DNA of 64,000 bases from contig JAPOXD010000021.1 in the NCBI GenBank assembly GCA_026707285.1, positions 2,559 to 66,558 on the forward strand, in the 5' to 3' direction. This document shows, in pieces, positions 5,120 to 39,360 of this stretch (positions within the stretch are counted from its first letter, which is position 1; the number at the start of each line of letters is the position of its first letter). The DNA comes from Chloroflexota bacterium. Lineage in GTDB: Bacteria > Chloroflexota > UBA11872. Made by a program: the position numbers and the translations under genes. A model generated the notes under the pieces. It made no database searches and was not told the origin of the DNA. It saw only the letters and a program-made list of their open reading frames with translations.

Positions 5120-6418
5120 TCACTCCGGGACGGTCAGAGGCGCCAGCATCTCGTCGGTGATGTACTTGCCCAGCGAAAAGAGCTTGCGGTCGGTGTACCA
5201 GAGGATGCGGCGCCCGTCGCGCTCAGTGAGGCTGGAATACATCGACAGCCACCACATGAAGAGCGGAAATACGCCGACCTTCTGCGTGTCGAACAGCAGC
5301 AGCGGCTGGCTGAACCACACCGGCTGATTGGCGTTCGGCCGGTACTCGCCGACGGCCAGGAACTGCGGGCGGCGGCTCTCCAATGCCAGCGGACCCTTGC
5401 CGCCATAGCCCCAGCCGTCGTGGTTCTGGAAGAGCAGCAGGTAGCGCCCGTCCTCCATCCGATACATCGGCGACGGGGAGTTGGGGTTGAGCATGGGCTC
5501 GCCGCCGTCCTTGAAGCGCAGCACCTCCGTGGGACGCCAGGTGAGGGCCTCGGCGTCGTCGGACACCGTGTACCAGAGCTCGCCGTTGGCGGTGCGCATC
5601 TCGGCAAACAGTCGGCCGTCCGGCAACAGCACCAGCCCCGGCTCCTCGCAGAAGGTATAGCCGTCGGACGCCTGCGGCTCGAAGCTGACCGGCACCTGGA
5701 TGAGGTTCTCGTCCTCGGGCAGCCAGGTGATCTGGACGTCCTTGGGGTCGGGGCCGTCGTCGATGTTCTCGAAACGCAGGAACTCGCAGCGAAACTCGCG
5801 GAACATGCCGTTGGGCCGGTCGCCCATGTGCGGCACGTAGGGCTTGGGCGTGATGTATTGCGCGGCCCAGCGAGTGAGCGCCACGACGTGACGGCCCTTG
5901 GCGTCGCGAATTGGTTTCTGCCACACGATTCCCATGGGCGGCACCGCGGGGTCGGGGTGATCGATGGGCGTGCGGCGGTACTCGATGTCGACCGCGCCGT
6001 CGATCCAGGTGTGGCCGTCGTCGTCCGAGTAGCGGCAGCGCAGCACCGCGTTGAGGGCGTTTTCGCCGTAGCCGACCGAGCGGTTGTAGTAGCAATAGAT
6101 GCGCCCGCTGGACGCAATGACGGGAAATCCGAAGCTGCTGACCTGGCCGGCCGTCCCGGCCTCGTGAATCTGCGCCGGCTCGGTCCAGGTGTGGCCGTGG
6201 TCGGAGCTGCGGGCGAAATAGACGCCGTAGTCGCGCGCGTCGGGCTCGTAGGCCAGGGTCCAGATGGCGAGCAGGTCGCCGCCGGGCGTGTAGTCCACCA
6301 GCACGTGGTCCTGGTGCTCGGGGTGTTCAGGCACCCGCGTGGGCAGGTGAAGCACCAGGTCCGGGTCCGTGCGCCGCCAGTCCTTGCTGTAGCAGGCGTA
6401 GTCGCCTTCAACCGGCAT
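5120..6418 (-). CDS. BNR/Asp-box repeat glycosidase-like protein (second subfamily)
   Basis: Asp-boxes SSDHGHTWTEP, SDDDGHTW; paralog of 8703..10004 (MPVEGDY.C.S.DWRRT.PDLV...). Confidence 0.6.
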   Translation of the reverse strand: MPVEGDYACYSKDWRRTDPDLVLHLPTRVPEHPEHQDHVLVDYTPGGDLLAIWTLAYEPDARDYGVYFARSSDHGHTWTEPAQIHEAGTAGQVSSFGFPVIASSGRIYCYYNRSVGYGENALNAVLRCRYSDDDGHTWIDGAVDIEYRRTPIDHPDPAVPPMGIVWQKPIRDAKGRHVVALTRWAAQYITPKPYVPHMGDRPNGMFREFRCEFLRFENIDDGPDPKDVQITWLPEDENLIQVPVSFEPQASDGYTFCEEPGLVLLPDGRLFAEMRTANGELWYTVSDDAEALTWRPTEVLRFKDGGEPMLNPNSPSPMYRMEDGRYLLLFQNHDGWGYGGKGPLALESRRPQFLAVGEYRPNANQPVWFSQPLLLFDTQKVGVFPLFMWWLSMYSSLTERDGRRILWYTDRKLFSLGKYITDEMLAPLTVPE

Positions 6419-6439: not shown

Positions 6440-8542
6440 CTAGGCCTCGTCGCAGTGGAACACGCCGACGCTCCAGGGCTCCATGGTGACCGGGAAGCCG
6501 TTGTCGTCGAGGGCGACCGGGGCATGCGCGATGAGGTCCGTGACCTCCGACACCGCCCACGCCGGACGCAGCGTGGCGGCGGCTTTCTGCCGCGCCAGGT
6601 TCTGCACGAAGACGAGCCATCCGCCCTGCCGCGAGCGCCGCAGCACCGGCACGATGGGATCGCCGTCGACCGCGACCGGAGCGCTGACTTCCGCGTCGTC
6701 GACCGCCGCCTGCACGACGGCGGGTATGGCGACATCGTCGAAGCCGGCCGACAGCGTGAGGCCGTACCACGTGATGCGGCCGTCGCCGCTGCGCACGGCC
6801 ACGGTGTGATTGCCGATTCGGGCGATGGCCTCGGTCGAGCCGTGGGGCTCGAGGAGGGCGTAGCCGCACGTCGTAGTGACGGGCACCGGGCCGTGAGGGG
6901 TCTCCAGGACGTTCCTCCCGTTCGCGATGTCGCTCTCGGTCACGGCCGAGAAGTCCGCCACACGCACGCCGATCCGGTCGGCGAAGCCCTCCGGCGGGTT
7001 GTAGCTGGACTGGCCGTCATGGGAGTAGGTCCCGAAGCTGCCCTCGATCAGCACCTGCACTTCCGGATTCTCGTCAAGCGTCCGCGCCAGGCGGTCGCGC
7101 GTCGCATCGTCCATCAGCGCCACGTTCGGCAGCACCAGCAGCCGGTAGCCGGACCAATCCATCTTGGGCGTCACCGGGTCCGCCGGGATGCCCCGCAGCC
7201 AGAGCGTGCGGTAGACGCCGCGAAAGTCGGCCATAAAGCGCTCGTCCTGCTGGCCGAACTGGAACAGCTCGTGCGCGTGGGCGTCGTAGACGATGGCTAC
7301 GTCGGCGCGCGGCACCTCCAGTGGCAGGTGGTCGCTCAGGCCCTCGATCTGCTCCAGGGCCTCAACCACCGCGCGGAACCGGGGTGTGGGTTCGCCGTCC
7401 AGGGCCACCATGTTGTAGCCGGGCGACTCGAAGCTCAGGTACTCAGGGCGGTACTGCCAGAACATGGCGCCGGCCGCGCCGCCGATGAGCGTCATCCAAA
7501 GCAGCATGGTCTGCTCGCACGGATGCGACTGCTTCTTCCAGGTCACGCCCCCGCGCGACATGCCGGCGTAGATCTCCTCGTTCCACCAGCGCCCGTTGCG
7601 GCCCACCTGGCGCGACCAGTCGAAGCCAAGGGCCCGGTCGGCGATGAGGTTCGGATCGTCCACGGTGAGCAGGTGGTTTGAGGCCATGGACATGCCCCAG
7701 CTGTCCACCAGTGGCGCGCAGTACTCGTCCTTGGGCTGCGGGCGCCAGCCGCCGTGGGCGCGCTTCTCGTGCACCGGGTCGATGGAGTTGGCCAGGTCCA
7801 TCATCCATTTCAGATAGTCGGCGATGTTCTCGTGATGGAAGCGCCGGTACCAGCGCATTTCGACGACGTTGCGGTTGGATCGCGGCGGCTCAACGTCTTC
7901 CCAGCGGCGGAAGCGGCGGTCGAACACCTCGTTGAGCTCATCCAGGGTGAACTGCTTCCGCAGCCACGCCTTGTACAACGCCAAGGTGTGCACGCAGTAG
8001 CAGGGGAAGCCTTCGCCCTGGGCCGCCCAGGCCGACGACAGGTTCGGCCCGTCCCAGATGCCCCAGATGAGCAGATTGGGCCGGTCCTTGTAGCGGTTGA
8101 TGGCGTGCCGCAGAAAGTCGCCCGCCAGGCGGCGAAACTCGGGGTGGTCGAAGCAATGGACCTGGGCGCCCTGGGCATACGCCGGGTGCGCGTCCTGCAC
8201 GACCAGCTCGTTGCGGTAGTTGACGACCTGCATGTCGGGGTAGTGACGCAGCAGCCAGTCGGGACCGGCGCCGTGAGTGGCCGTGGGCACGTCCAGCCAG
8301 ACGTAGAGCCCGTGCTTCTCGGCGGTGTCGAAAAGCAGGTCGATGTCGTCCATCTCGTAGTGGCCCGGGCTCGGCTCGAACCACTGCCAGTATGGAAACG
8401 AGCGCACGATGCGCAGCCCAGCAGCGCTCAGGCGCGCAAAGTCCTCATCCCAGACCTCGGGCTTGGGCGTGGGCGGGCGGTAGTACTCCACCCCGACGGG
8501 AAACGGCACGCCGGGGATGCCGAATCGGTTGTCCTGGGCCAT
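6440..8542 (-). CDS. beta-galactosidase, glycoside hydrolase family 42-like
   Basis: N-terminal TIM-barrel pattern GVEYYRPPTP.PEVWDEDFARLSAAGLRIVR...W..FEPSPGHYEMDDIDLLFD.AEKHGLYVWL; ~700 aa length fits GH42; alternative upstream start at 8581. Confidence 0.65.
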   Translation of the reverse strand: MAQDNRFGIPGVPFPVGVEYYRPPTPKPEVWDEDFARLSAAGLRIVRSFPYWQWFEPSPGHYEMDDIDLLFDTAEKHGLYVWLDVPTATHGAGPDWLLRHYPDMQVVNYRNELVVQDAHPAYAQGAQVHCFDHPEFRRLAGDFLRHAINRYKDRPNLLIWGIWDGPNLSSAWAAQGEGFPCYCVHTLALYKAWLRKQFTLDELNEVFDRRFRRWEDVEPPRSNRNVVEMRWYRRFHHENIADYLKWMMDLANSIDPVHEKRAHGGWRPQPKDEYCAPLVDSWGMSMASNHLLTVDDPNLIADRALGFDWSRQVGRNGRWWNEEIYAGMSRGGVTWKKQSHPCEQTMLLWMTLIGGAAGAMFWQYRPEYLSFESPGYNMVALDGEPTPRFRAVVEALEQIEGLSDHLPLEVPRADVAIVYDAHAHELFQFGQQDERFMADFRGVYRTLWLRGIPADPVTPKMDWSGYRLLVLPNVALMDDATRDRLARTLDENPEVQVLIEGSFGTYSHDGQSSYNPPEGFADRIGVRVADFSAVTESDIANGRNVLETPHGPVPVTTTCGYALLEPHGSTEAIARIGNHTVAVRSGDGRITWYGLTLSAGFDDVAIPAVVQAAVDDAEVSAPVAVDGDPIVPVLRRSRQGGWLVFVQNLARQKAAATLRPAWAVSEVTDLIAHAPVALDDNGFPVTMEPWSVGVFHCDEA

Positions 8543-8702
8543 CGCCGCACCCCCACAACGCCGCCACCACGTGCCGCGCATGGTACCCGCGTGGGAACGC
8601 GGGCGTGGGGCGCGCTGGAACGTTCGCGCGGGGGCGGGGGACGGACTAGGCTGCGGCTACCTGGGCGGTGCGCGTCCGGGGTGATGGCTAGCGGGGTGTG
8701 TC

Positions 8703-10004
8703 ATGCCGGTCGAGGGCGACTACGAGTGCTTTAGCGACGATTGGCGCCGCACGAATCCTGACCTGGTCTTCTTCCTGCCCAAGCAGCCGCCGGAGTGGGT
8801 GGAGGCGGTGGATCACGTGCTGGTGTCGGAGACGCCGGGCGGCGATCTGCTGGCGATCTGGACCTATGGCACCAAGGCGGACGCCTCGGACCACACGGTG
8901 CTTTACGCGCGCAGCGAGGACGGTGGGCGCAGCTGGTCCGAGCCGGGCGAGTTCGACCCGCCGGGACCCAAGCCCGGCCAGGCAAGCTGCTTCGGGTTTC
9001 CGGTGATCAGCCGCACGGGCCGCATCTATGCCTTCTACAACAAGGGGACGGGCATCGGGCTCAGCTATCAGACGAGTTTCCTGCGCTGCAGCTACTCCGA
9101 CGACGACGGACGCACCTGGACACCGGGCGGCGTGGACATTTCCTACCGCCGCACGATCCTGAGCCATCCCGACCCGAGCATTGGCACGAACTCGATCGTG
9201 TGGCAGAAGCCGATCCGGGACGCGCTGGATCGCGTGCTGGTGGGCTATACGGAGTGGGCCTCGCCGGCGGCGCGGCAGGTAACCGGGGTGCGCCGGCCGG
9301 ACGGCAAGGTGCAGTACTACCGCAGCGACTGCCGCTGCCAGTTCATGCGCTTCGACAACATCGACGAGGACCCGGATCCGAAGGACGTGCAGATCACCTG
9401 GCTGCCGGACCACGAAGAGCTGATCACCGTCCCGCTCCAAAGCGACCCGGAGGCCCCGGAGGGCTCGTCATTCTGCCAGGAGCCGGCGCCGGCGCTGCTG
9501 CCTGACGGCCGGCTGTTCACGGTGATGCGCACGCGCAACGGGCAGATTTGGTACACGGTTTCGGACGACCACGGCCGCTCGTGGCGGCCCACGGAGATGC
9601 TGCGCTACAAGGACGGCGGCGAGCCGATGGAGAATCCGGTGTCACCGACGCCGCTCTACCGCCTCAACGACGGCCGCTATCTCCAACTGCTCCAGAATCA
9701 CGACGGGTACGGCTACGGCTCGGTGGGCATCGGCGACTCGAACAGCAGCCGCCGGCCGCAGTTCATTTCGCTGGGCGAGTACCGCCCCGGCGCGCACCAG
9801 CCGATCTGGTTCAGCGATCCGGTGCTGCTCTTCGACACCAACTGCGTGGGCGTGCCGCCGTTCTACAAATGGTGGCTCTCGATGTACGCCAGCCTGACGG
9901 AGCTGAACGGCGAGCGGATCTTCTGGTACTCCGACCGCAAGGTGTTCGGGCTGGGGCGCTACATCACGGACGAGATGCTGGCGGAGATGCCGGTGCCGGA
10001 GTGA
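8703..10004 (+). CDS. BNR/Asp-box repeat glycosidase-like protein (paralog of 5120..6418, inverted orientation)
   Basis: Asp-boxes SEDGGRSWSEP, SDDDGRTWTPG, SDDHGRSWRPT; ~45-50% identity by eye to the 5120..6418 product. Confidence 0.6.
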   Translation: MPVEGDYECFSDDWRRTNPDLVFFLPKQPPEWVEAVDHVLVSETPGGDLLAIWTYGTKADASDHTVLYARSEDGGRSWSEPGEFDPPGPKPGQASCFGFPVISRTGRIYAFYNKGTGIGLSYQTSFLRCSYSDDDGRTWTPGGVDISYRRTILSHPDPSIGTNSIVWQKPIRDALDRVLVGYTEWASPAARQVTGVRRPDGKVQYYRSDCRCQFMRFDNIDEDPDPKDVQITWLPDHEELITVPLQSDPEAPEGSSFCQEPAPALLPDGRLFTVMRTRNGQIWYTVSDDHGRSWRPTEMLRYKDGGEPMENPVSPTPLYRLNDGRYLQLLQNHDGYGYGSVGIGDSNSSRRPQFISLGEYRPGAHQPIWFSDPVLLFDTNCVGVPPFYKWWLSMYASLTELNGERIFWYSDRKVFGLGRYITDEMLAEMPVPE

Positions 10005-10148: not shown

Positions 10149-10260
10149 CAAGAGTCACCAGCGCAGAAACCCGGCATCGAGTCATCCGTAGGGGCAGCCT
10201 GTCTGCACAGATTGAAAGTGCTACTTGCAATGTATGCACTTCACTGATAGCGTACTGTGT

Positions 10261-11445
10261 ATGATTGAACGCGAGATTGGCGATCAACTCGCGCGGCTGT
10301 TTGCGCAGTACCCGTTTGTGACGGTGACGGGACCACGGCAGTCGGGAAAGACCACGCTGTGCCGGGCGACCTTTCCCGACCTGGCCTATGTCAACCTGGA
10401 AGCGCCCGACCAGCGAGAGTTCGCCGAATCCGATCCCCGAGGGTTCCTGGCGCAGTTCCCCGAGGGCGCGATCATTGATGAGATCCAGCACGTTCCGGAC
10501 CTGCTGTCGTACCTGCAGGTGCTGGCCGACGACCTAGGCCGCAACAGCCTGTTCGTGCTCACGGGCAGCGAGCAATTCCGACTCCCGAGCAGCATCAGCC
10601 AGTCGCTCGCCGGGCGAACGGCGCTGCTGCGGCTGCTGCCGTTTTCCCTGGCGGAACGCCAACGCACCGGCGCGAGCGCGACAATTGACAACCTGCTGTA
10701 TACGGGGTTCTATCCCCGGATTCTCGACCAGCGGCTGGAGCCACGGCAAGCGCTGGGCGACTACTTCGAGACCTACGTGGAGCGCGACGTGCGCCGGATG
10801 GGCGAGATCCGCAACCTATCGAGCTTCCGGCGCTTCGTGCGGCTATGTGCAGGCCGCGTTGGGCAACTCGTCAACTTGAGCTCGCTGGGATCGGACGCCG
10901 GCGTGTCCCACTCCACGGCGCGACACTGGCTGACGGTGCTCGAAGCAAGCTACATCATCTTTCAACTGCCACCGTTTCACGCCAACATCCGAAAGCGTCT
11001 GATCAAGTCGCCAAAGCTCTATTTCTGCGACGTTGGACTGGCCAGCTATCTCATCGGCATCGAAGACCCGAAACAGCTCGTCACGCATCCGCTGCGCGGT
11101 GCGCTGTTCGAGAACTTGGTCGTGGCGGAGGCGCTAAAGCACCGTCTCAATCGAGGCCGCCAGCCAAATCTGTCTTTTTTCCGCGACGCCAGGGGCCTGG
11201 AGTGCGATCTCTTGTACGAGACCGGCCACGGTATTGGCGCCATCGAGATCAAGGCCGGATCAACCGTGCCATCCGACGCCTTCCATGCACTGAATCGCGT
11301 TGCAGACTTGATTCCGACCATCGCAGGCAAGGCGATGGTCTACGGCGGCGCCGATAGTCAATCCCGCACCGATGGCCAGGTCGTGCCATTGCCGGACCTG
11401 TCCGGCCTGTTGGAACGATTCGACCACGATTCATCGGCTGACTGA
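10261..11445 (+). CDS. AAA+ superfamily ATPase (COG1373 / DUF4143-type)
   Basis: Walker A TGPRQSGKTT; overall pattern of the predicted ATPase family with a C-terminal DUF4143-like region; start taken at MIEREIG (10261) inside ORF 10225.. Confidence 0.65.
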   Translation: MIEREIGDQLARLFAQYPFVTVTGPRQSGKTTLCRATFPDLAYVNLEAPDQREFAESDPRGFLAQFPEGAIIDEIQHVPDLLSYLQVLADDLGRNSLFVLTGSEQFRLPSSISQSLAGRTALLRLLPFSLAERQRTGASATIDNLLYTGFYPRILDQRLEPRQALGDYFETYVERDVRRMGEIRNLSSFRRFVRLCAGRVGQLVNLSSLGSDAGVSHSTARHWLTVLEASYIIFQLPPFHANIRKRLIKSPKLYFCDVGLASYLIGIEDPKQLVTHPLRGALFENLVVAEALKHRLNRGRQPNLSFFRDARGLECDLLYETGHGIGAIEIKAGSTVPSDAFHALNRVADLIPTIAGKAMVYGGADSQSRTDGQVVPLPDLSGLLERFDHDSSAD

Positions 11446-11451: not shown

Positions 11452-14070
11452 CTAGGCGGTGATGCGCAGCGTCAAGTGATCGCCCGCTCCGACTAGGCGC
11501 GCAGCGGCAAGCTCGGCGCATCCCACGTCGGTGAGTTCCAGGGCCCGCAACCGAACCTCGCCGCCGAGGATATCCAGGCGCACGTGCCAGCCGTGGGCGC
11601 TCGGGGTACGGGTGCAGGTGCCCCAGGCGGAGCCGTTGGACCAGAAGACCGTGCCGGGGGCGGCGGCGAAGCGCATCTCTCCGCGGACGGCGGAGTAGCC
11701 GAAGCCGGCGACGGCGACCACGGCGCCCCAGGCGGCCATGGCCCGGGCGTAGTGATGGCCGTATTCCGGCTCGTCGAACGGATTCCGCCGGGCGCCATCG
11801 TGGCGGGCGCGCACGGCCTCGATCACTCGTAGCGCGGCGTCGGGCTGCCCCTCCTGGAGCATGCCGACGGCGGCGGTGTATTCGAGGCCCGACCAGACTT
11901 CGTTGCAATAGGGGAATGGGCGCTCGGGGCGGTCGCCGTGGGGATAGGCGGCGATGACCAGGCCGGCCTCGTCGGCGAGGGCGTAGCTGCGAAAGTGGTT
12001 CACGTGGCCCCGCATGGACGGGCGGAAGTTGTGGCGCATGATCGACTGCAGCGTCGTCGCCACGTGGTCGGGATCGAGCAGCGGGCCGAGGCCACTGAGG
12101 CGGGCGGCGGCCTGGCCGACGAGCTGGCCCACGAGGCAGCCGCTGCCGACCTGGTGCTCGGGGGCTTCCAGGTTCTGGGCGGCGTACTTCTCGGGCCGGC
12201 GCAGCCCGGGGGCGATGCGCAAGCGCTCGGGCTGGGGCCGGATCTGGTGCTCGTAGTAGTCGCCGTTGAAGAGGCTGGCGTCGATCCAGGCACGGCCCTG
12301 CTCAAACAGGCGGCGGCACTCAGCGGCAAAGCCGGTCTCGCCGAGGTGGGCGGCCATCTCCTCCCCCGCGCGCAGCGCCGCCAGGTACCAGCCGCCGATC
12401 TCGGGGTTGGGGCCGAAGTACTCCACGTCCATGGTGTTGTGCTGGCAGCCCTCCATGACGCCGTCGCGGTCGGCGTCCCAGCCGCCCTCGATCCAGCAGA
12501 ACTCGAGCGCGCGGCGGGCGCCGGGCCAGACGCGCCGCAGAAAGTCGTCGTCGCCGCTGAGCTGCCAGTCGCGGTAGAGCTTGACCAGGCAGCCAAGCTG
12601 GCCGTCGGCCGCCGCCAGACCCCAGTCGGACGAGCGCCCGCGAGGGAGCGCCGCGCGGAACTCCATGTGACCGTCGCTGCCGGTGGACTCGTTGAACTCG
12701 ATCTCGCGCATGCCCCGCGCCAGGTCGCCAAAGAGAAAGCCCGTGACGTGCTCGTAGTTCCAGACGTGGGTGCAGGTGCCGAAGCCCGCGCCGGCGTCGT
12801 CGAAGCAGCCTTCGAAGCCGTAGAAGCCGCCGTCGGCGCTGCGAAAGGCGGTCTGGGAGCGCAGGGTGCTGAGGTTGAAGAGCGCGGCCTCCTTGATCGC
12901 GTCGGGGATGTCGGCAGCGCAGAACGCGCGCACGAACCGGACCGTGTCGCGCTCGAGGTCCGGCAGATGGGCGGCGGCGGCCTCGGCGGCGGCCCAGGCG
13001 TCGGGGACGCGGGTGGCGTAGTGATTGCCGACCCGGTCGGCGCGGGCGTCGCCGGTGCGCATGACGTCCCAGGTGAGGCGGTTGGGGAAGTGCCAGGCGA
13101 GCAAGAAGGTGACGGCGCGCTCTTCGCCCGGATCCAGGTCGACGGCAGCGGCCAGCGATGCCGTGGGTGAATCGGCGTCGCCGGGTGGGCGGTCCTCGAG
13201 CCGGCCGTCGGCGCTGAAGTCGTCCCAGAATTCGAGCAGGGCGTCGCCCCAGGGGACGTCGTACCAGGACGTGCGGGCGGTGACGGTCTGGTGGCGGGCG
13301 TCGAGGACCGTGAGGGCCAGGGTGCCCCACTGCTCGGCGTGGTCGGGCACGCCGTCGGAGCGCATGTCGAGGCCACGGAGGCCATTGCCCAGGCGCCAGC
13401 GGTTGACGTTGCGCTTGGGCTCGCCGTGCTTGCCGTCCGTGCCGATGAAGTTGGCCAGAGTCGCGCAGACGGCGACTTGCAGGGGAACGTCCGTCGGGTT
13501 GGCGGCCACCCAGCGCAGCACGGCCACGGGAAGGCCGCTGTCGTCGGCGCGGCCGGGGATGAGCGGGTTGAAGGCTTCGAGCCGCAGGTCGACCGGGACA
13601 TCGGGGTCCTCGAGACTCACTTGCGCCAGCGGATAGGCGGCGTGGAACGACGCGTCGGCGAATCGCGGCAGGCCGTGGTGGGGCGCGGGCGAGCCGAGAG
13701 TCCCCTCGTAATCGGCCCGGTCGAGATCGCCTTCGAGCAGCCGGGTGGCGGGCGGGCGGCCCTGGGCTTGTACGCGGACGGCGAAGAAGGCGCGGGGCTC
13801 GGTCATGTTGCGCGTGATCGGCACGTTGGGGACAAAGCCCTTGGCCGGGCGGTTGACGATTTCCCAATCGCGTAGATCGCCGCGTCCGCCCAGCGAGACG
13901 GTGCCCGTGCCGATGCCGCCGATGGGCATGGCCACGCGCCGCAAGTGCTCGCCACGATAGGCGCGCAGCACGGGCCAGGCGGGGTTGAGGCGGAGACGGT
14001 CGTTGGGCATGGACGAATCGTGCCTCACGTGCGCGGGCACGTCAGCATCAGCATTGGGCATGCGCGGCAT
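11452..14070 (-). CDS. glycoside hydrolase family 116 (GBA2-type beta-glucosidase/glucosylceramidase-like)
   Basis: N-terminal GBA2_N signature MPIGGIGTGTVSLGGRGDLRDWEI; ~870 aa with a C-terminal (alpha/alpha)6-type region typical of GH116; start could also be 14010. Confidence 0.7.
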   Translation of the reverse strand: MPRMPNADADVPAHVRHDSSMPNDRLRLNPAWPVLRAYRGEHLRRVAMPIGGIGTGTVSLGGRGDLRDWEIVNRPAKGFVPNVPITRNMTEPRAFFAVRVQAQGRPPATRLLEGDLDRADYEGTLGSPAPHHGLPRFADASFHAAYPLAQVSLEDPDVPVDLRLEAFNPLIPGRADDSGLPVAVLRWVAANPTDVPLQVAVCATLANFIGTDGKHGEPKRNVNRWRLGNGLRGLDMRSDGVPDHAEQWGTLALTVLDARHQTVTARTSWYDVPWGDALLEFWDDFSADGRLEDRPPGDADSPTASLAAAVDLDPGEERAVTFLLAWHFPNRLTWDVMRTGDARADRVGNHYATRVPDAWAAAEAAAAHLPDLERDTVRFVRAFCAADIPDAIKEAALFNLSTLRSQTAFRSADGGFYGFEGCFDDAGAGFGTCTHVWNYEHVTGFLFGDLARGMREIEFNESTGSDGHMEFRAALPRGRSSDWGLAAADGQLGCLVKLYRDWQLSGDDDFLRRVWPGARRALEFCWIEGGWDADRDGVMEGCQHNTMDVEYFGPNPEIGGWYLAALRAGEEMAAHLGETGFAAECRRLFEQGRAWIDASLFNGDYYEHQIRPQPERLRIAPGLRRPEKYAAQNLEAPEHQVGSGCLVGQLVGQAAARLSGLGPLLDPDHVATTLQSIMRHNFRPSMRGHVNHFRSYALADEAGLVIAAYPHGDRPERPFPYCNEVWSGLEYTAAVGMLQEGQPDAALRVIEAVRARHDGARRNPFDEPEYGHHYARAMAAWGAVVAVAGFGYSAVRGEMRFAAAPGTVFWSNGSAWGTCTRTPSAHGWHVRLDILGGEVRLRALELTDVGCAELAAARLVGAGDHLTLRITA

Positions 14071-14127
14071 GTTTTACATCGCGGGCCTTCGGTATGGACG
14101 ACTAGGGGGATGATCGAACGGCGGCGC

Positions 14128-14215
14128 AAACCCGTTGTGGTTCGACGGGATCACCACGAACGGTTGGACCGAGCCTGCCCTGAGCTTGCCGAAGGGCTCA
14201 CCACGAACGGGCTGG
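14128..14215. repeat. intergenic repeat, family A (..TCACCACGAACGG.. / CCTGAGCTTGCCGAAGGGCTCACCACGAACGG), two partial tandem units
   Basis: core TCACCACGAACGG at ~14150 and ~14198; reverse strand translates to VRGEPFGKLRAGS, a repeat type common in Chloroflexi genomes; second locus at 14906..14960. Confidence 0.55.
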
Positions 14216-15229: not shown

Positions 15230-15778
15230 ATGGACAACGGCGTCTACATCGCGCTGCTGCGGGCCATCAACGTCGGCGGCACCAAGAAGCTGCTGATGGC
15301 CGACCTGCGGGCGATGTTCGAGGCGGCGGGGTGCACGGAGGTGCGGACATACATCCAGAGCGGCAACGTGGTATTCCGGGCGGACCCGGCGCTGGCGGAG
15401 CGTATTCCAGAACTCATTGAAGGGGAGATCGCCGCCAGCAAGGGGTTCCAAGTTCCCGTTGTAACGCGGTCGGCGGCGGAGTGGAGCGCGGTCGTGAGCG
15501 GCAATCCGTTTCTGGCGGCCGGCGCCGACCCGGCGCAGCTCCACGTGGGATTCCTGGCCGAGGAACCGGGCACGGCCCGCATCGCGGAGCTAGACCCAAA
15601 CCGCTCGCCGCAGGACGCCTTGGAGGTGAGAGGACGCGAGGTCTACCTGCACTTTCCGAATGGCACGGCGCGGTCGAAGCTGACGGTTGACTATTTCGAC
15701 CGCACCTTGGGAACGACGATCACGATTCGCAACTGGCGCACGGTCGGCAAGCTGCTCGCTATGGCTGGGGGCGACTGA
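15230..15778 (+). CDS. DUF1697 family protein
   Basis: N-terminal YIALLRAINVGG.KKLLMADLRAMFEAAG; typical ~180 aa. Confidence 0.7.
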   Translation: MDNGVYIALLRAINVGGTKKLLMADLRAMFEAAGCTEVRTYIQSGNVVFRADPALAERIPELIEGEIAASKGFQVPVVTRSAAEWSAVVSGNPFLAAGADPAQLHVGFLAEEPGTARIAELDPNRSPQDALEVRGREVYLHFPNGTARSKLTVDYFDRTLGTTITIRNWRTVGKLLAMAGGD

Positions 15779-16022: not shown

Positions 16023-17795
16023 GTGCGTATGACGGACCGCATCGCCGACCGCGGGTTGGTCAACGACCCGGTCTACATCACCGACCTGAGCGCGGTGGAG
16101 CCGGCCGACGCCGTGGGTCCGGTGCCGGCGTTTCACCGCTGGCGCTCGATGGCCTACACCGCCGGGGAGCTCAGCGGCCGGATGCTGCTGGCGGGTCCCG
16201 AGACGGCCGCGCCGGACGTGACGCTGGACCTGAACGCGAGCGGGTGGCATGCAGTCACGCTGGGTCTGATGCCGCCGCCGGGTTACGAAGGCGCCCCATT
16301 GAAAGTGCTGGCGCGCCTGAGCGGCGACGCGACGCCGACGATGCTCACGGCGCAGCCGGCGCATCCCGAGATTGGGCATGACTTGCAACTCGTGGAGCTC
16401 TATTGGCGCACGGCCGATTTGACCGGCCGGCAGCTGGTGCTGGGGCAGCCGCAGTGGCAGACGGCGCCGGTGGACGCGGTGGGCGCCTGGCGGTCGGAGA
16501 TCGTGCGCATTGCTTATGTCAAGCTGGTGCCGTTGACCGACGCCGAAGTGGCGGAGGCGCAAGCCGAGCGCCGGCGCACCGACACCCGCCGGCTCTTCGC
16601 CCACCAGGACGCGCACGGACCGCACTACCTGTGGCGGTTGAACGATGCCGAGGGCATCCGGCGCGAGATCGAGCCCTATCGCGACAGCGACTTCTCCCGC
16701 ATGTATTGGGAAGCCGGCGAAGGCGACATCAGCTACTACTTCAGCAAGATTGCGCGCTGGTGCACGTTCGACGAGGCCGAGGACTTCGCGCGCGTGGGCG
16801 ACCGGCTGCACGCCGAGAGCTGGCGGGAGTTTCGCGACCTGGGCGTGGATCCGCTCGATGTCGCCATCGAGCACTGTCACGACGCCGGGCTGGAGATTCA
16901 CGCGTCATATCGCGTGGCGGGCTTCTGGTATCCGCCGCCAATCGATCATTTCAACCTGGGCGACACTTTCGCCGCGGCGCACCCGGAATGGCGCGGGCGG
17001 GACCGCAACGGCCAGACGACGCCGCGCATTGCCTATTCCTATCCCGAAGTGCGGGCCTACATAGTGTCGCTGCTGCGCGAGATGGCCGAGCGGCCCATCG
17101 ACGGGGTGTGCCTGCTTTACAACCGACGCCTGCCCCTGGTGGAGTACGAGCCGCCGGTGGTCGCGGCCTTCCAGGACGAATACGGCCTCGATCCGCACGC
17201 GCTGCCGGCGGACGACGACCGCTGGCTGCGGTTCCGCGCGCGCGAGCTGACCCAGTTCGTGCGCGAGGTGCGGCAGGCGATGGACGAGATGGGCGCGGTG
17301 CACGGCAAGCGGCTTGGCGTCTCCGCCGTGGTGATGAGCAGCGAGCAGGAGAATCTCCAAAACGCCATCGACCTGGGAGCGTGGGTGGAGGAAGGCATCG
17401 TCGACACGCTGATTCCCTACACCTCGGTCCCCGGCGGAGACTCGCACGCGGTGTCGTGGGAGGATCCGGCGGATCTGGCGTATTTCGTGGAGCTGGTGCG
17501 CGGGACGGATTGCGTGCTGGCCCCGGGGATGATGCCGCGGCACCGCCCGCCCGAGGACGTGCGCCGCCAGGCAGCGGGCATCTACGGCGCGGGCGCCGAT
17601 CACCTGTTTTTCTGGGACGCGGCGGGAGGCTCCGGGCGGGCGAACCACGGCGCGATGTGGAACGCGCTGCGGCGGCTGGGGCACCGCGACGAGATCGAGG
17701 CCTGGCGCGCGGCGGGGGAGCCCTCGCTGCAACCCACCGCCCACGACGTGGACGTGCTGGACGATTGGGACCTGTCCTACACGACGCCGGGATGA
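16023..17795 (+). CDS. uncharacterised TIM-barrel glycoside-hydrolase-like protein (paralog family 1 of 3)
   Basis: ~50% identical to the 17976..19775 product across the full length (..RRLFAH.D.HGPHYL.RL..EE..RREIEPYRD.D.SR.YWEAG.GD.., ..GVCLL.NRR.PLVEYEPPVV..FQ.EYGLDP..); family assignment is inference. Confidence 0.45.
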   Translation: MRMTDRIADRGLVNDPVYITDLSAVEPADAVGPVPAFHRWRSMAYTAGELSGRMLLAGPETAAPDVTLDLNASGWHAVTLGLMPPPGYEGAPLKVLARLSGDATPTMLTAQPAHPEIGHDLQLVELYWRTADLTGRQLVLGQPQWQTAPVDAVGAWRSEIVRIAYVKLVPLTDAEVAEAQAERRRTDTRRLFAHQDAHGPHYLWRLNDAEGIRREIEPYRDSDFSRMYWEAGEGDISYYFSKIARWCTFDEAEDFARVGDRLHAESWREFRDLGVDPLDVAIEHCHDAGLEIHASYRVAGFWYPPPIDHFNLGDTFAAAHPEWRGRDRNGQTTPRIAYSYPEVRAYIVSLLREMAERPIDGVCLLYNRRLPLVEYEPPVVAAFQDEYGLDPHALPADDDRWLRFRARELTQFVREVRQAMDEMGAVHGKRLGVSAVVMSSEQENLQNAIDLGAWVEEGIVDTLIPYTSVPGGDSHAVSWEDPADLAYFVELVRGTDCVLAPGMMPRHRPPEDVRRQAAGIYGAGADHLFFWDAAGGSGRANHGAMWNALRRLGHRDEIEAWRAAGEPSLQPTAHDVDVLDDWDLSYTTPG

Positions 17796-17975
17796 TGACG
17801 GGCGTGGGACTTGGGTCGGATCACCCTCACCCCAGCCCTCTCCCGTCAAGGGAGAGGGGGGCGGTCCCTGGTTCCGCCGCACCGCCGAACGACGCCAAGC
17901 GGGCGGCCACAAGGGCCGCCCCTACCCGGCTGGACGATGCGCGGAACCTCCGATGAGCGCTAGAAGGAGCTAGGC

Positions 17976-19775
17976 ATGACGGCAGCCACTACCGATCTCT
18001 TTGCCGACGGCTGGCTCAGCAGCCCGCCGCAATACCGCGCGGACCTGGATCGCTGCGAGCCGGCCTCGGCGCTGAGCGCCACGGGCAAGCGCGGACATTG
18101 GCGGACGATGTCGTTCGAGACCGACGACGTGGCGGGCACCATGATCGCGGCGGGGCCGGAGACGGCCGCGCCGGCGGTGAGCTTTCCGCTGCGCGCCAGC
18201 GGCTGGCACGCGGTGTCGGTGGGCATCGTGCCGAACTTCAAGTGCACCGATGACACCGCCACGGTGGCGGTACCGGTCAAGCTCAGCAGCGACGACACCT
18301 ACTCGTTGCTCACGCTGAACCTGTCCTCGCTGCAAACCCGGCTGCTGCCGGATTGGCACGGGCCGGCGGTGGCCGAGATGTTCTGGAAGATTGCCGACCT
18401 CACGGACATGAGCCTCGATATCTGCCAGATGGTCCGGCGGGTGGCGCCGGGGGACGCGCCGGGGTCGTTCAGCGGCCCGGCGGCGCGCGTGGCCTACGTG
18501 AAGCTGGTGCCGCTGACCGACGACGAAATCGAGACCTGGCAGGCGGACCAGGCGCGGACGGATACGCGCCGCCTGTTCGCCCACAACGACTCGCACGGGC
18601 CGCACTACCTGTTCCGCCTCACCACCGAGGAAGAGGTGCGGCGCGAGATCGAGCCCTATCGCGACACCGACGTCTCGCGCATCTACTGGGAGGCCGGCGG
18701 CGGCGACCGCACGCGCTTTTTCAGCCGCGTCGCCCGCGCCGAGGTCATGGAGGGGCAGGAGGATTTCGGGCGGCGCGGCGACCGCATGCACGCCGAAAGC
18801 TGGCGAGACTTCCAGCAGCAGGGCGTGGACCCGTTCGACGTGGCGTTGGCGCACACGCACGCGCTGGGCATGGAATTCCACGCGTGCTATCGCGTGGCGG
18901 GGTTCAAGTACCCGCCGCCGCTGGATGGCGCCAGCCTGGGGGAGGTCTTCTTCGACCGGCATCCCGAATGCCGCGGCGAGGACCGCGCGGGCAACCGCAC
19001 GCCGCGCATGGCCTACAGCTATCCCGCGGTGCGGGAGTTCGTGGTCTCGCTGCTGCGCGAGATCGTGGAGCGGCCCGTGGACGGCGTGTGCCTGCTGTTC
19101 AACCGGCGCATGCCGTTGGTGGAGTACGAGCCGCCGGTGGTGGAGGGGTTCCAGCAGGAATACGGGCTCGACCCGCGCGAGCTTGCGGCGGACGACCCGC
19201 GCTGGCTCGCCTACCGCGCGCGGACGCTGACGGGCTTCATGCGCGAGGTGCGCGCGGCAATGAACGAGGCGGGCGAGGCGCGGGGGTCGCGGATCGACGT
19301 GGGCGCCGTGGTGGCGGCCACCGAGCAGGAGAACCTGCAGGACGGCATCGACCTGCGCGCCTGGATGGACGAGGGACTGATCGACACGCTAATCCCCTAT
19401 AGCTCGGAGCCGGTCTACGACAGCCACCATCCGTCGTGGACGGATCCGTCACAGCTGGCGTTCTTCGTGGACCTGGTGCGCGGCACCGACTGCGTGCTGG
19501 CGCCGAACCTGATGCCGAGGCATCAGTCGCCGGAGGACTTTCGCCGCCGGGCGTCGACCGTCTACGAGGCCGGCGCCGGACACATGTTCTTCTGGGACGC
19601 CGCCGGCGGCTGCGGCCGGGCCAACCACCAGCCCATGTGGAGCGGCCTGAAACGCCTGGGCCACCAGGACGAAATCGCCGCCTGGCAAGCCGCCGGCGAG
19701 CCCGACCTGCCGCGCACCATCAAGCCCCTGCGCAAATGGGACGGCTGGGATTTCGCCTACGAGACGCCGGGGTAG
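17976..19775 (+). CDS. uncharacterised TIM-barrel glycoside-hydrolase-like protein (tandem paralog)
   Basis: tandem duplicate of 16023..17795; a third, more distant paralog lies at 31450..33048. Confidence 0.45.
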   Translation: MTAATTDLFADGWLSSPPQYRADLDRCEPASALSATGKRGHWRTMSFETDDVAGTMIAAGPETAAPAVSFPLRASGWHAVSVGIVPNFKCTDDTATVAVPVKLSSDDTYSLLTLNLSSLQTRLLPDWHGPAVAEMFWKIADLTDMSLDICQMVRRVAPGDAPGSFSGPAARVAYVKLVPLTDDEIETWQADQARTDTRRLFAHNDSHGPHYLFRLTTEEEVRREIEPYRDTDVSRIYWEAGGGDRTRFFSRVARAEVMEGQEDFGRRGDRMHAESWRDFQQQGVDPFDVALAHTHALGMEFHACYRVAGFKYPPPLDGASLGEVFFDRHPECRGEDRAGNRTPRMAYSYPAVREFVVSLLREIVERPVDGVCLLFNRRMPLVEYEPPVVEGFQQEYGLDPRELAADDPRWLAYRARTLTGFMREVRAAMNEAGEARGSRIDVGAVVAATEQENLQDGIDLRAWMDEGLIDTLIPYSSEPVYDSHHPSWTDPSQLAFFVDLVRGTDCVLAPNLMPRHQSPEDFRRRASTVYEAGAGHMFFWDAAGGCGRANHQPMWSGLKRLGHQDEIAAWQAAGEPDLPRTIKPLRKWDGWDFAYETPG

Positions 19776-19916: not shown

Positions 19917-20195
19917 GTGATCGTTTCGTTCAAGCACGGAGGACTTCGGGCGCTCTATCTTGGTCGAGGCGCACAGCGTGTGGCACCGGCTCACGTCCGC
20001 AAACTGCGGGACATTCTGGCGGTGCTGGACCAAAGTCGCGGGCCCCACGACATGGATCTTCCAGGGTTTCGGCTGCATCGATTGAAGGGCGACCTGCGAA
20101 ATCACTACGCCGTCTCGGTGTCGGGAAACTGGCGAGTGACCTTCCGCTTTGAGAATGGTCACGCGGTCGACGTCGACTACACGGACTATCACTGA
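19917..20195 (+). CDS. higB: type II toxin HigB (RelE/ParE superfamily, 'plasmid maintenance system killer')
   Basis: MIVSFKHGGLRALY...HRLKGDLRNHYAVSVSGNWRVTFRFENGHAVDVDYTDYH matches the HigB family pattern end-to-end. Confidence 0.8.
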   Translation: MIVSFKHGGLRALYLGRGAQRVAPAHVRKLRDILAVLDQSRGPHDMDLPGFRLHRLKGDLRNHYAVSVSGNWRVTFRFENGHAVDVDYTDYH

Positions 20196-20206
20196 AAGGA
20201 GAAGTC

Positions 20207-20512
20207 TTGACCATGCATGCGCCACCGCATCCGGGTGGGATTGTGAAGCGGCAGTGCCTGGAGCCCCTTGGGTTGTCGGTGACGCGAGCGGCTCTGGGCC
20301 TTGGCGTGACTCGGCAGGCACTGTCGGAGTTGGTGAACGAACGAGCGGGGATATCGGTGGAGATGGCGGTGCGGTTGTCCAAGGCATTCGGCTCGACGCC
20401 CGAGACGTGGCTGGGGATGCAGACGGCTTTCGACTTGTGGCAGGCGCGCGAGCGTACGGCGCAGTTGGAGGTTGAGCAGTTTGCGCCGGCGCTGGCCGAG
20501 GGCGGTGGCTAG
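20207..20512 (+). CDS. higA: antitoxin HigA (XRE-type HTH)
   Basis: HPGGIVKRQCLEPLGLSVTRAALGLGVTRQALSELVNERAGISVEMAVRLSKAFGSTPETWLGMQTAFDLWQA; 11-nt gap after higB. Confidence 0.8.
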   Translation: MTMHAPPHPGGIVKRQCLEPLGLSVTRAALGLGVTRQALSELVNERAGISVEMAVRLSKAFGSTPETWLGMQTAFDLWQARERTAQLEVEQFAPALAEGGG

Positions 20513-20600
20513 ACCGTCGGAGGCGGGGCGCTAGGCGCAGTCGCAAAAAGGGCAACGACTACGGTTGCCTATACGGCGGACACCCATGGACGCAGGGGTA

Positions 20601-20630
20601 GATTCCCGCCCTCGCGCGAATGACGGAGAG
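20601..20630. repeat. family B palindromic repeat (partial copy)
   Basis: GATTCCCGCCCTCGCGCGAATGACGGAGAG located where the toxin partner of the 20726..21028 antitoxin would be expected. Confidence 0.5.
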
Positions 20631-20725
20631 ACTACGCGCAGGTCTCCATCACGAGTGGAAGGTCGGGGCCCGAAGGGGGAGGGACTCGACCGGCAGCACG
20701 ACCAGCGCCGGCAAGACCAAACACC

Positions 20726-21028
20726 TCAGCGGCTCTGATCCCGCTCCTTCGCGATGGTGCCGCTCGCGCTGAAACCCTCGCCTAGCAGCGGCGCGGGTTT
20801 GGCTAGGAATCGCTCGACGTCGAGCACGGCCCGCGGCCGGTCCGCTACCTGCCGCCCTACCAGCCGCTCCGCCGCTTCATCCAGCCTCATCGCGGAGGCG
20901 AGATATTGCTCGATTCGCGCCACAGGTTCGCCGTTGTGCGTGACGATCACGGACTCACCGCGACGGACATCATCTACTAGCGCGTAGAGGTCGTTCCGAG
21001 CTTCGCTGTCACGTACGCCTCTCATCAC
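20726..21028 (-). CDS. Phd/YefM-family antitoxin, apparently orphan
   Basis: RNDLYALVDDVRRGESVIVTHNGEPVARIEQY.. is a classic Phd/YefM N-terminus; no downstream toxin ORF of 60 aa or more. Confidence 0.6.
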   Translation of the reverse strand: MMRGVRDSEARNDLYALVDDVRRGESVIVTHNGEPVARIEQYLASAMRLDEAAERLVGRQVADRPRAVLDVERFLAKPAPLLGEGFSASGTIAKERDQSR

Positions 21029-26618: not shown

Positions 26619-28154
26619 TCACCAGGGGTTGGTGGCGTCCATCTCCCACTTGACGAGGTTCGTGACCCGGACGGGCCGATCCTCGGTGAAGAGCTTGAAT
26701 TGCTTGCTGTCGTCCCTGGTTGGGTAGACCCGCTGGACGATGCAGATCCGCGAATTGACGAACATCTCGATGACGGAGCGGTCGACGAACAGGTCGATGT
26801 CGAGTCGGCCGCCGCCCTCCAGGGTGAAGGGCACGACTTGCCGGCGGACGCCCCTGGAGTACCGCCCGGCGTCATAGCCGTAGGTCAAGCCCTGGTCTTC
26901 GCTGGCCCGCTCGAAGTCGACCACGAACTGCTGCCGCTCGGCGTCGTAGGTCACCACCGTTTCCTCCCGGCCTCCAGGCGAGCACAGCACCTTGAGCCCG
27001 AACCGAGCGGCGTCGTTGGCCTCGATGGTCAGCTCGATCTCCATACAGTCCGACGCGAAGCCCTGGACCGTCCGTTCCTCGCCCTCAGACAGGGTGACGT
27101 CGACATGCCGCCGCTCGTCGCAGCGCAAGGCGCGAAGCTCGGTGACCGGATCGATGCGGAGGCTGTTGTCGGCCGCAGGCGTGAAATGCCAGGGCAGGGT
27201 CATGACGCCGGCCCACCCATGTTTCTCCCATTGGTGCTCCCGCGCGTCCCTGATCCAGCCCCAGAAAATCCTCCGGCCCCGGTCGTCCACCAGCGTCTCG
27301 GGTCCGGCGACCAGGCTGCCCAGATGGCTCAGTTGCCCGTGGATCTCGGGGATGAACTGCTCGTGCGCGTAGCGCCCGATGTAGTACTGGGCCTTGTTGT
27401 AGGGCCAGTGGGTATGCATCAGCAGCATGTGCTTGTCGCCGAACGGAAAGAAGTTGGAGCAGGCGCAGTCCTCGACTTCCGCCGTCCACCGTCGATCGGA
27501 CTTGTAGAAGGGACCGACGTACTCCCACTGCTTGAGGTCCTTGGACTTGAAGAGGCTTGTTGAGTCTCCCTCGTAGCCGGGGCGGTGGTTCTTGTTTCCG
27601 ACGAGGGCGAAGTAGAAATCGCCCTCTTTCCAGCCGCTGGGATCGAAGATCACGCACTCCGCGAATTTGCTGGAGGACTTGGGCGGTGCGCCCTCCCGGG
27701 GCGGGTCCAGGGGTATGACGGGGTTCTCGGCCAGTGGGACCCAGTGATCCAAGTTGTCGTCGTGGCACTGGTAGATGCAGATGCCCCGCGTGGGCATGTT
27801 GGTGATGATGGCGGGCGGGTCCGTGCCCTCCATCACATCGCCGCTGTTGAAGTAGTCGCCCTTGGCGCCCGCCAGGGGCTCACGCAGCGAGGCTTTGTGG
27901 AAGCGCCAGTGGAGCAGGTCTCGGCTGCTGATGTGCTGCCAGCTCGAGAAGTAGATCTGGCCCGGCCCATTGGCGATCTTCTGCAGGTAGCCGAGGTGAT
28001 ATCGGCCCTTCCAGTAGATGGCGCCGTTGATGTCGTTCCAGCGGCCTTCCGGCGGGACGAAGTGGTACCTGGGCCGGAATTTGTCCGCGACCAGCTTCTC
28101 CCGCAGCTCGTAGGACTCCATCAGGTAGTCGTCGAAGTCGCTCATCAGGTACAC
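26619..28154 (-). CDS. glycoside hydrolase family 32-like (beta-fructofuranosidase/levanase-type five-bladed propeller plus beta-sandwich)
   Basis: N-terminal YHFVPPEGRWNDINGAIYWKGRYHLGYL resembles the GH32 YHF.P..WMNDPNG catalytic block; WIRDARE ~ RDP region; no signal peptide. Confidence 0.6.
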   Translation of the reverse strand: MYLMSDFDDYLMESYELREKLVADKFRPRYHFVPPEGRWNDINGAIYWKGRYHLGYLQKIANGPGQIYFSSWQHISSRDLLHWRFHKASLREPLAGAKGDYFNSGDVMEGTDPPAIITNMPTRGICIYQCHDDNLDHWVPLAENPVIPLDPPREGAPPKSSSKFAECVIFDPSGWKEGDFYFALVGNKNHRPGYEGDSTSLFKSKDLKQWEYVGPFYKSDRRWTAEVEDCACSNFFPFGDKHMLLMHTHWPYNKAQYYIGRYAHEQFIPEIHGQLSHLGSLVAGPETLVDDRGRRIFWGWIRDAREHQWEKHGWAGVMTLPWHFTPAADNSLRIDPVTELRALRCDERRHVDVTLSEGEERTVQGFASDCMEIELTIEANDAARFGLKVLCSPGGREETVVTYDAERQQFVVDFERASEDQGLTYGYDAGRYSRGVRRQVVPFTLEGGGRLDIDLFVDRSVIEMFVNSRICIVQRVYPTRDDSKQFKLFTEDRPVRVTNLVKWEMDATNPW

Positions 28155-35627: not shown

Positions 35628-35715
35628 CCGGCCAAATTGGCCCTGACTCCCAGGTACCGAATCGGGACGCCATGCGCAACGCTTCCCGAACCAAATCGAG
35701 ATTGAAGGGCAGGCA

Positions 35716-38208: not shown

Positions 38209-38226
38209 CAGGCCGGGCGCGCTCGC

Positions 38227-39327: not shown

Positions 39328-39360
39328 GCTCGCCGCGTCACTCGGGCGAGGCTCGGCGCC

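Follow-up and report, generated by a model that had tools for sequence, protein, structure and literature searches.

A tandem gene pair of a Chloroflexota bacterium very probably belongs to a sister group of the GH156 sialidases, and a distant third copy is, by published criteria, a divergent GH156 member

To which enzyme family do three related genes in the genome of a Chloroflexota bacterium belong, and what could their products do? The genes, called here A, B and C, lie in a 64-kb stretch of contig JAPOXD010000021.1 (66% G+C; hereafter the window), A and B in tandem and C at a distance. A first-pass annotation, made from the DNA letters alone, had described them as three copies of one expanding and perhaps undescribed family with a hydrolase-like TIM barrel, to which no CAZy family could be assigned. 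Our analysis places C in glycoside hydrolase family 156 (GH156) by published criteria, and A and B, very probably, in a sister group of that family with an altered active site. That A and B act as ulosonic-acid glycosidases is plausible, although a little short of an even chance, and we give the explanation as a whole, with C as a divergent GH156 member, about equal chances of being right or wrong. GH156 is a young family, dating from 2018, with only a handful of assayed enzymes and an unusual inverting mechanism that uses an Asp/His pair. The three open reading frames (ORFs) were present as first described:

16023..17795, plus strand: gene A, ORF of 590 amino acids (aa) with a GTG start
17976..19775, plus strand: gene B, ORF of 599 aa, matching GHL10 at 36.6 bits
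31450..33048, minus strand: gene C, ORF of 532 aa, from the Met of MKPHRLILCNDGG

Gene A is publicly annotated from the ATG at 16029, two codons after the GTG start, which gives a protein of 588 aa, and gene B is preceded by an AAGGAG ribosome-binding site 7 nt upstream. Gene C is nested in a longer ORF reaching 33678; the start chosen here (MKPHRL) agrees with homologues of 532 aa. The similarity between A and B extends over the full length, as had been noticed, and amounts to 56% identity rather than about 50% (594 columns, 660 bits). Comparison of A with C gave 26% identity over 371 columns (E 4e-16), and the profiles of the A and C families aligned with an E-value of 3.3e-28 (hhalign), values that put the relatedness of the three proteins far beyond chance. 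Of the blocks quoted as common to the three, YW(E/Q)xG (YWEAG/YWQLG) and EHxHxAGLE...S(Y/M)RV are found in the proteins as quoted, whereas GV.L.FNR is confined to A (GVCLLYNRR) and B (GVCLLFNRR), and C reads GLDWDFCRY there. The A-B pair is kept as orthologues in at least ten species-level metagenome-assembled genomes (MAGs), which indicates that the tandem duplication behind A and B is old and that both copies are maintained.

What kind of proteins are they? All three score above the gathering score (27.9 bits) of the GHL10 profile PF02638, A with 49.0, B with 36.6 and C with 29.1 bits, and C matches DUF4015 weakly, in agreement with the glycoside-hydrolase-like TIM barrel that had been recognized in the sequence. 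These matches are partial, about profile positions 53-259 of 311 or roughly two thirds, and NCBIfam gave no match for A, B or C. With the same profile P0241, an orthologue of the GH156 founder, scores 17.1 bits. The family is not entirely undescribed, since Pfam captures it and NCBI names a public protein identical to A 'MAG: family 10 glycosylhydrolase [Chloroflexi bacterium]'. That name derives from the Pfam 'glycosyl hydrolase-like 10' and is misleading, as these are not the GH10 xylanases of CAZy. An AlphaFold2 model of A (predicted local distance difference test score, pLDDT, 91.2; predicted template modelling score, pTM, 0.91) has beta-strands at residues 17-170, a linker helix at 173-184 and, from 191 to about 535, a barrel in which beta and alpha elements alternate. 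Two domains were delimited:

16023..16586, plus strand: N-terminal beta-sandwich of A (aa 1-188), with a CBM6/CBM35/CBM36-like fold
16587..17657, plus strand: (beta/alpha)8 barrel of A, from the secondary structure of the model

B has the same architecture and the same signature residues as A, both proteins consisting of a CBM6/35-like beta-sandwich, the (beta/alpha)8 barrel and a short tail. An N-terminal beta domain followed by a barrel, first proposed for the three copies, thus describes A and B; in C the barrel comes first and is followed by a C-terminal beta-sandwich. Inspection of the sequences revealed no hydrophobic signal segment or lipobox at the N-termini of A, B or C and, as they have no signal peptide, A and B are taken to be cytoplasmic.

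A CAZy family can in fact be named, as GH156 is the nearest one by sequence and by fold. Residues 98-405 of its enzyme EnvSia156 were rebuilt from a printed alignment, and this fragment was used to fetch full-length GH156 orthologues, among them P0241 (96% identical to the query fragment), from which a GH156 profile was built. When the A-family profile was compared with the PDB, EnvSia156 was the best match (E 1.1e-13) and Cwp19 the second (E 1.5e-5). A fold search with the model of A returned EnvSia156 of GH156 (1e-19, 29.4), Cwp19 of GHL10 (5e-14, 25.8) and PgaB of GH153 (3e-9, 20.4). The A-family and GH156 profiles aligned with an E-value of 9e-18 (hhalign), A and B show about 25% identity with EnvSia156 over 283 aa (E 5e-8), and against the hidden Markov model of the GH156 orthologues they score 39.9 and 39.3 bits, in two fragments, compared to 134.5 bits for C. 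A and B are members of the wider GHL10/GH156/GH153 TIM-barrel superfamily. That their clade is the sister group of GH156, with C falling under the criteria of GH156 itself, we regard as very probable. The three copies do not form a single family, C having the GH156 architecture and A and B an N-terminal sandwich and an altered active site.

The evidence for C is the following. A phmmer search with C matched EnvSia156 (PDB 6rzd) at E 1.1e-25 and the C-family profile matched it at E 8.5e-37, while the C-family and GH156 profiles aligned over 471 columns, C-terminal beta-sandwich included (hhalign, E 8.5e-38); the C-terminal 130 residues of C align to the GH156 C-domain in the hhalign comparison. 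C and P0241 share 31% identity over 331 aa (E 4e-28). The active site of EnvSia156 comprises the base Asp14, the acid His134 and a carboxylate triad formed by Arg129, Arg202 and Asn346 (PMC6811678). In C the residues equivalent to Asp14, Arg129, His134, Arg202 and Asn346 are Asp11, Arg125, His130, Arg212 and Asn361, and all five are invariant in 42 C-family sequences. According to the rule of Mann et al., a GH156 sialidase keeps four or more of the five active-site residues; these authors found a mean pairwise identity of 28% within GH156, and the gut GH156 proteins that they expressed, one of them with sialidase activity, were 27-35% identical to EnvSia156 (bioRxiv 10.1101/2022.06.28.497753). 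With five residues out of five and 31% identity, C lies within these published limits and by them is a divergent GH156 member. The first-pass annotation had named a confident assignment to a well-characterised family as the result that would speak against its reading, and for C the placement in GH156 does so in part. Most likely, C is an inverting exo-sialidase-type enzyme with a different +1 pocket; because its +1 platform and glycerol-tail contacts are altered and it has no signal peptide, its exact substrate may differ. Around C-type homologues the genomic context was uninformative, these genes standing alone amid transposases and other unrelated genes. The first 131 residues of C, when used as a phmmer query against the PDB, did not recover the N-terminus of EnvSia156; the Asp14 motif recovered from the GH156 orthologues is LNEDNSH.

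How, then, does the active site of A and B compare? Residues were mapped by hhalign of the A-family against the C-family and against the GH156 profile, with the following result for A:

16608-16610, plus strand: codon of signature residue Asp196, equivalent to Asp14 of EnvSia156, conserved
16911-16913, plus strand: codon of signature residue Arg297, equivalent to Arg129, conserved
16926-16928, plus strand: codon of Trp302, at the position of GH156 His134
17124-17126, plus strand: codon of signature residue Arg368, equivalent to Arg202, conserved
17613-17618, plus strand: codons of the signature pair Trp531-Asp532, Asp532 being at the position of Asn346, replaced
Val436, at the position of EnvSia156 Arg246, replaced
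Gly300, at the position of EnvSia156 Asp132, replaced

In B, Asp205 is located at the Asp14 position and Lys311 at the His134 position; the register around Asp14 reads LNEDNSH / LCNDGGT / AHQDAHG. The residues that are invariant throughout the clade are the Asp after beta1, the Arg on beta3, the Arg on beta4 and the Trp-Asp on beta8, instead of the catalytic Glu or Asp at beta4 and beta7 suggested initially. Asp196, Arg297, Arg368 and Asp532 are kept in 42, 43, 43 and 43 of 43 close homologues, in 125, 126, 126 and 122 of the 126 sequences from genomic loci, and in 108, 115, 114 and 108 of the 115 full-length representatives at 50% identity. None of the three sets has a conserved residue at position 302 (His in 69/126 locus sequences). 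Within orthogroups this position is fixed, as Trp or Leu in A-orthologues and as Lys in B-orthologues (13/13, from other MAGs), and between orthogroups it alternates among His, Arg, Lys and Trp/Leu; it looks like a specificity position and not a catalytic one. Concerning the carboxylate triad, C keeps all three residues, and A and B have both Arg together with an invariant Asp in place of Asn346. The contacts of EnvSia156 with the glycerol tail and the N-acetyl group are not conserved in A and B. Printed alignments of Cwp19 show Asn and Phe at the positions of Arg297 and Arg368 of A, so the Arg pair is a feature in common with GH156 and not with GHL10 proper.

The clade to which A and B belong is large. 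A search of 1.84 billion cluster representatives with its profile yielded 4212 matches at E<=1e-3 and 576 clusters at E<=1e-30, many members of the clade scoring below the PF02638 threshold. The N-terminal domain is kept in 111 of the 115 full-length top representatives, and some relatives carry signal peptides or added modules. One Verrucomicrobiales relative is fused to a GDSL/SGNH esterase and three others to CBM9, fusions that support a carbohydrate-active role. In GTDB, taken as one genome per species, 288 relatives were found, of which the best 80 all come from MAGs of Chloroflexota/Dehalococcoidia or Candidatus Poribacteria. Poribacteria are a sponge-associated candidate phylum and, judging by isolate names typical of sponge metagenomes, many of the clade genomes would be sponge-associated. 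The expansion suggested by the three copies is real, as MAGs of Chloroflexota and Poribacteria contain clade genes in tandem arrays of two to six. Among 85 loci, 27 contain two copies, four contain three, one contains four and two contain five, one Dehalococcoidia locus has six clade copies in 14 kb, and the 3.1-Mb chromosome OZ244806.1 has at least nine in the retained loci. In surveys based on dbCAN, 'GH156' already appears beside GH33 for sponge Dehalococcoidia and for SAR202 with large genomes, and some genes of the A/B/C type have probably been counted already as sialidases without scrutiny of the active site.

Do the genes next to the paralogues indicate a substrate? All ORFs were clustered across 88 clade loci, and only two non-shadow families recurred across orthogroups: GFO/IDH/MocA (42/88 loci) and a protein of about 310 aa (29/88). 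The latter matches PF00701 (DHDPS) in the 17 of 17 members tested, the first of them at 25 bits, and its profile matches the structures of DHDPS, N-acetylneuraminate lyase, KDG aldolase and 2-keto-3-deoxyarabonate dehydratase. In the alignment its invariant Lys184 (FKED) falls on the Schiff-base Lys (GIKEA), and TWGE replaces the GTTGE motif; these features identify it as a very divergent pyruvate-dependent class I aldolase of the DHDPS/N-acetylneuraminate-lyase family. In 24 of the 88 loci, from 24 species genomes, the aldolase stop codon is located -19 to +20 nt from the point where a same-strand A-clade gene is projected to start, for example:

L052, 7057-7977: aldolase gene, upstream of an A-clade paralogue (the linked loci range from L028 to L061)

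In this locus the aldolase and A-clade ORFs overlap by 4 nt, and in five further loci two or three aldolase copies are located 2-6 kb upstream of a tandem A-clade pair. By this arrangement of the ORFs, translation of the aldolase gene is coupled with that of a GH156-like gene in 24 species of Chloroflexota. The linked paralogues constitute two orthogroups, down to about 54% identity to each other, one with His and the other with Arg at position 302, and with the rest of the HDEDHR.RRNRWD signature as in A and B. Aldolases of the DHDPS/NanA family act on 2-keto-3-deoxy acids, and their abutting the paralogues in 24 species suggests for the latter a role as glycosidases of the cytoplasm by which a 2-keto-3-deoxy (ulosonic) sugar acid is set free. 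Other neighbours of clade genes include GH42, GH116 and BNR_2.

From this evidence the following mechanism may be proposed for A and B. The enzymes would be exo-acting and would remove a terminal 2-keto-3-deoxy sugar acid, ulosonic and sialic-acid-like, from imported oligosaccharides. Asp196, after beta1, would serve as the general base for activation of the attacking water, the part played by Asp14 in EnvSia156, and Arg297 on beta3 and Arg368 on beta4 would clamp the carboxylate on the anomeric carbon in the manner of Arg129 and Arg202. The acid His134 would not be used, and the variable position 302 probably tunes specificity. A candidate for the proton donor is the clade-invariant Asp532 on beta8, which stands in place of the carboxylate-binding Asn346. 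The released keto-acid would then be cleaved by the aldolase of the DHDPS/N-acetylneuraminate-lyase family, as the neighbourhoods of the paralogues suggest. Since the glycerol and N-acetyl contacts of EnvSia156 are not kept, the sugar is probably not plain Neu5Ac, and the difference in the tail pocket together with the variation at position 302 makes it probable that the paralogues have diverged in substrate.

A number of points weigh against the ulosonic-acid reading of A and B. By the rule of at least four residues in five, which C passes with five, A and B fail with three, the acid His being one of those lost. The spatial arrangement of the active site comes from alignment only, and neither a characterised member of the clade nor a solved structure was found in the PDB or the literature. 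An Asp beside a bound carboxylate is electrostatically awkward unless protonated, and the two Arg might pair with Asp196 and Asp532 rather than with the substrate. No aldolase gene adjoins A or B and the window contains no DHDPS-like gene; the 24 aldolase-linked loci come from related Chloroflexota, so that their conservation is partly shared descent, and the neighbourhoods apart from the aldolase vary across loci. When the recurrent GFO/IDH/MocA neighbour was examined as a possible NanOx/YjhC-type oxidoreductase of anhydro-sialic acid, YjhC ranked 7th and RgNanOx 15th among generic GFO matches, a resemblance that is not specific.

A bolder version of the ulosonic-acid proposal takes the clade as a separate family of glycoside hydrolases, still to be named, or a GH156 subfamily of deep divergence, that would work with an Asp pair (beta1 and beta8) and no His. 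Its substrates would be ulosonic acids other than Neu5Ac (Kdn, Kdo and bacterial or sponge nonulosonic acids), and its arrays would represent a battery diversified in specificity, with position 302 and the sugar-tail pocket as the sites of tuning and with coupling to a divergent pyruvate aldolase of its own. We offer this tentatively and, in all its parts, consider it rather unlikely.

Alternatively, A and B could be glycosidases of neutral or amino sugars on a re-tooled scaffold, with the Arg in a structural or pKa-tuning role. The loss of His134, the change of Asn346 to Asp and the missing glycerol and N-acetyl contacts would all fit, and three neighbours in the window (GH42, GH116 and GH32) have neutral sugars as substrates. 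Moreover, 19 of the 51 CAZy GH156 sequences inspected by Mann et al. are without the dyad or the triad and, in their words, 'may target neutral sugars' (bioRxiv 10.1101/2022.06.28.497753). However, both Arg of the carboxylate clamp are nearly invariant (115 and 114 of the 115 representatives), and the pairing with a pyruvate aldolase in 24 species fits a keto-acid product better than a neutral sugar. This makes the alternative rather unlikely.

It is improbable that A and B are no glycoside hydrolases at all, but binding proteins, pseudo-enzymes, or isomerases, lyases or anhydro-forming enzymes of free sugar acids (compare the intramolecular trans-sialidases and the lytic transglycosylases) that feed the aldolase and the oxidoreductase. 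The canonical acid catalyst is missing, and the GHL10 relative Cwp19 is a lytic transglycosylase and not a hydrolase. NanOx/YjhC of the GFO family processes 2,7-anhydro-Neu5Ac, GFO/IDH/MocA genes occur in 42 of the 88 loci, and YjhC and RgNanOx appear, not at the top, among the PDB matches of one such neighbour. Yet the match to NanOx is not specific, the strict conservation of polar active-site residues counts against a pseudo-enzyme, and the fusions to CBM9 and to an SGNH esterase, with the CBM-like N-domain, point to polymeric or oligomeric glycans. Finally, a role as GHL10-type cleavers of peptidoglycan glycan strands (like Cwp19 or DigH) acting on products of cell-wall recycling is very improbable: in spite of the PF02638 scores above threshold, the second rank of Cwp19 among the structures, the peptidoglycan substrates of the characterised GHL10 members, a class-A penicillin-binding protein gene just upstream in Poribacteria loci and a MurNAc carboxylate that arginines could bind, the wall is out of reach of proteins without signal peptide or lipobox, A and B are nearer to GH156 than to Cwp19 by every measure, Arg297 and Arg368 are Asn and Phe in Cwp19, which has HFDDY at beta4 where A has LLYNRR, at least nine paralogues per 3-Mb genome in arrays of up to six are unexpected for a housekeeping wall enzyme, and the aldolase would have no part in muropeptide recycling.

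The spacer between A and B contains the following elements:

17796..17975, plus strand: A-B intergenic spacer of 180 nt, with two GC-rich hairpins and the AAGGAG ribosome-binding site of B
17836-17858: hairpin 1, CCCTCTCCC-GTCAA-GGGAGAGGG (from sequence; motif unique in the window)
about 17903-17922: hairpin 2, GGCGGCC-ACAA-GGGCCGCC (from sequence)

No T-tract terminator or sigma-70-like promoter was found in this spacer, and its fold was not significantly more stable than that of shuffled sequences (z -1.28). On these grounds no regulatory role is claimed for the hairpins.

The surroundings are rich in carbohydrate-active genes, as had been pointed out, with GH42, GH116, GH32 and three BNR_2 genes in the window:

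314-1540, 5120-6418 and 8703-10004: BNR_2 six-bladed propellers, cytoplasmic, flanking GH42
6440-8581: GH42
11452-14070: GH116
26619-28154: GH32

Automated annotation would probably call the BNR_2 proteins GH33 sialidases; the one that was tested matches GH33 structures weakly, through the Asp-box repeats (E about 1e-5), and these genes were not counted as evidence for sialic acid. A BNR_2 gene also adjoins an A-clade gene in one Poribacteria locus. Between the BNR_2/GH42 group and GH116 there is an AAA_14/DUF4143 ATPase gene (10225-11445, plus strand), which is also present in an identical contig, L001. A DUF1697 gene (15230-15778, plus strand) precedes A by 245 nt and is syntenic in the orthologous loci L001, L002 and L087; it was not found beside other A-clade paralogues. 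Directly downstream of B, at about 19974-21028 of the window, are toxin-antitoxin genes:

about 19974-20189: HigB-like toxin (called in the identical contig L001 at 13952-14167)
20207-20512: HTH_3 antitoxin
20726-21028, minus strand: PhD/YefM antitoxin

A molybdopterin-oxidoreductase-domain protein (PF00174; 29222-31369, plus strand) combines a membrane region at the N-terminus with a low-complexity linker, about 200 residues long, built from TPEPTPTP repeats. Further on, the region 34551-42961 looks like a sterol-modification gene cluster:

34551-35627, plus strand: Rieske/KshA_C oxygenase
35716-38208, plus strand: MMPL transporter with a sterol-sensing domain
38227-39327, plus strand: methyltransferase with a Sterol_MT_C domain
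39361-41451, minus strand: GPP34-cytochrome P450 fusion
41594-42961, minus strand: FAD amine-oxidase-type protein

Bacterial sterol methyltransferases in sponge-associated lineages bear on the interpretation of sterol biomarkers.

Why should these genes be of interest? They are an enzyme-discovery lead with a concrete hypothesis, and not surprising in kind. A sister clade of several hundred clusters that keeps the carboxylate clamp and loses the His would reveal how this scaffold varies its acid catalyst, and the clade is a possible source of glycosidases for acidic sugars that lack good enzymes, such as Kdn, Kdo, legionaminic and pseudaminic acids. The clade attains at least nine copies in a 3-Mb genome within Chloroflexota and Poribacteria lineages, which dominate sponge microbiomes. 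Automated counts of 'sialidases' in sponge lineages have been used to argue that they feed on host glycans, and the substrates of the paralogues would test that argument.

When compared with known systems, A, B and C differ from GH153, represented by the C-terminal domain of PgaB, a poly-beta-1,6-GlcNAc hydrolase, in that no significant sequence similarity was detected and that PgaB is a periplasmic protein whose substrate is a de-N-acetylated neutral or cationic polymer. With GHL10 (PF02638/DUF187/UPF0748), which includes Cwp19 of C. difficile (PDB 5OQ2) and DigH/YddW of E. coli, only profile positions 56-258 of 311 match. Its characterised members are secreted or lipoprotein peptidoglycan enzymes, Cwp19 having a signal peptide of 24 aa, whereas A, B and C are cytoplasmic. 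The Cwp19 beta3 and beta4 motifs FNPYR and HFDDY, which are alignment positions and not assigned catalytic ones, are not kept and read YRVAGF and LLYNRR in A and MRVNDVH and WDFCRY in C. The modules that join a sialidase to NanA, with or without a GFO oxidoreductase, resemble the clade loci in the direct coupling of a glycosidase-like gene to a DHDPS-family aldolase in 24 species, often with GFO/IDH/MocA nearby. They differ from them in that here the aldolase is highly divergent, the GFO protein is not specifically NanOx-like, the pairing involves paralogues and not A or B, and no canonical nan transporter, kinase or epimerase was seen at the clade loci. The closest system is that of the GH156 inverting exo-alpha-sialidases (EnvSia156, PDB 6RZD/6S00; Chuzel 2018, PMC6254351; Bule 2019, PMC6811678). 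A and B depart from it by the change of His134 to Trp (A) or Lys (B), of Asn346 to Asp and of Arg246 to Val, and by a CBM6/35-like beta-sandwich that is N-terminal and not C-terminal, with only a short C-terminal tail. The aromatic +1 platform (Trp164, Phe278, Trp279) and the glycerol-tail contacts (Asn15, Ser16) are not conserved in any of the three proteins, which are cytoplasmic, whereas many GH156 proteins have signal peptides. Nevertheless, EnvSia156 is the best sequence and fold match for A, B and C: A and B have in common with it the barrel, the catalytic Asp that follows beta1 and the two Arg that bind the carboxylate, and C, 31% identical, has its arrangement of two domains and the full set of five active-site residues.

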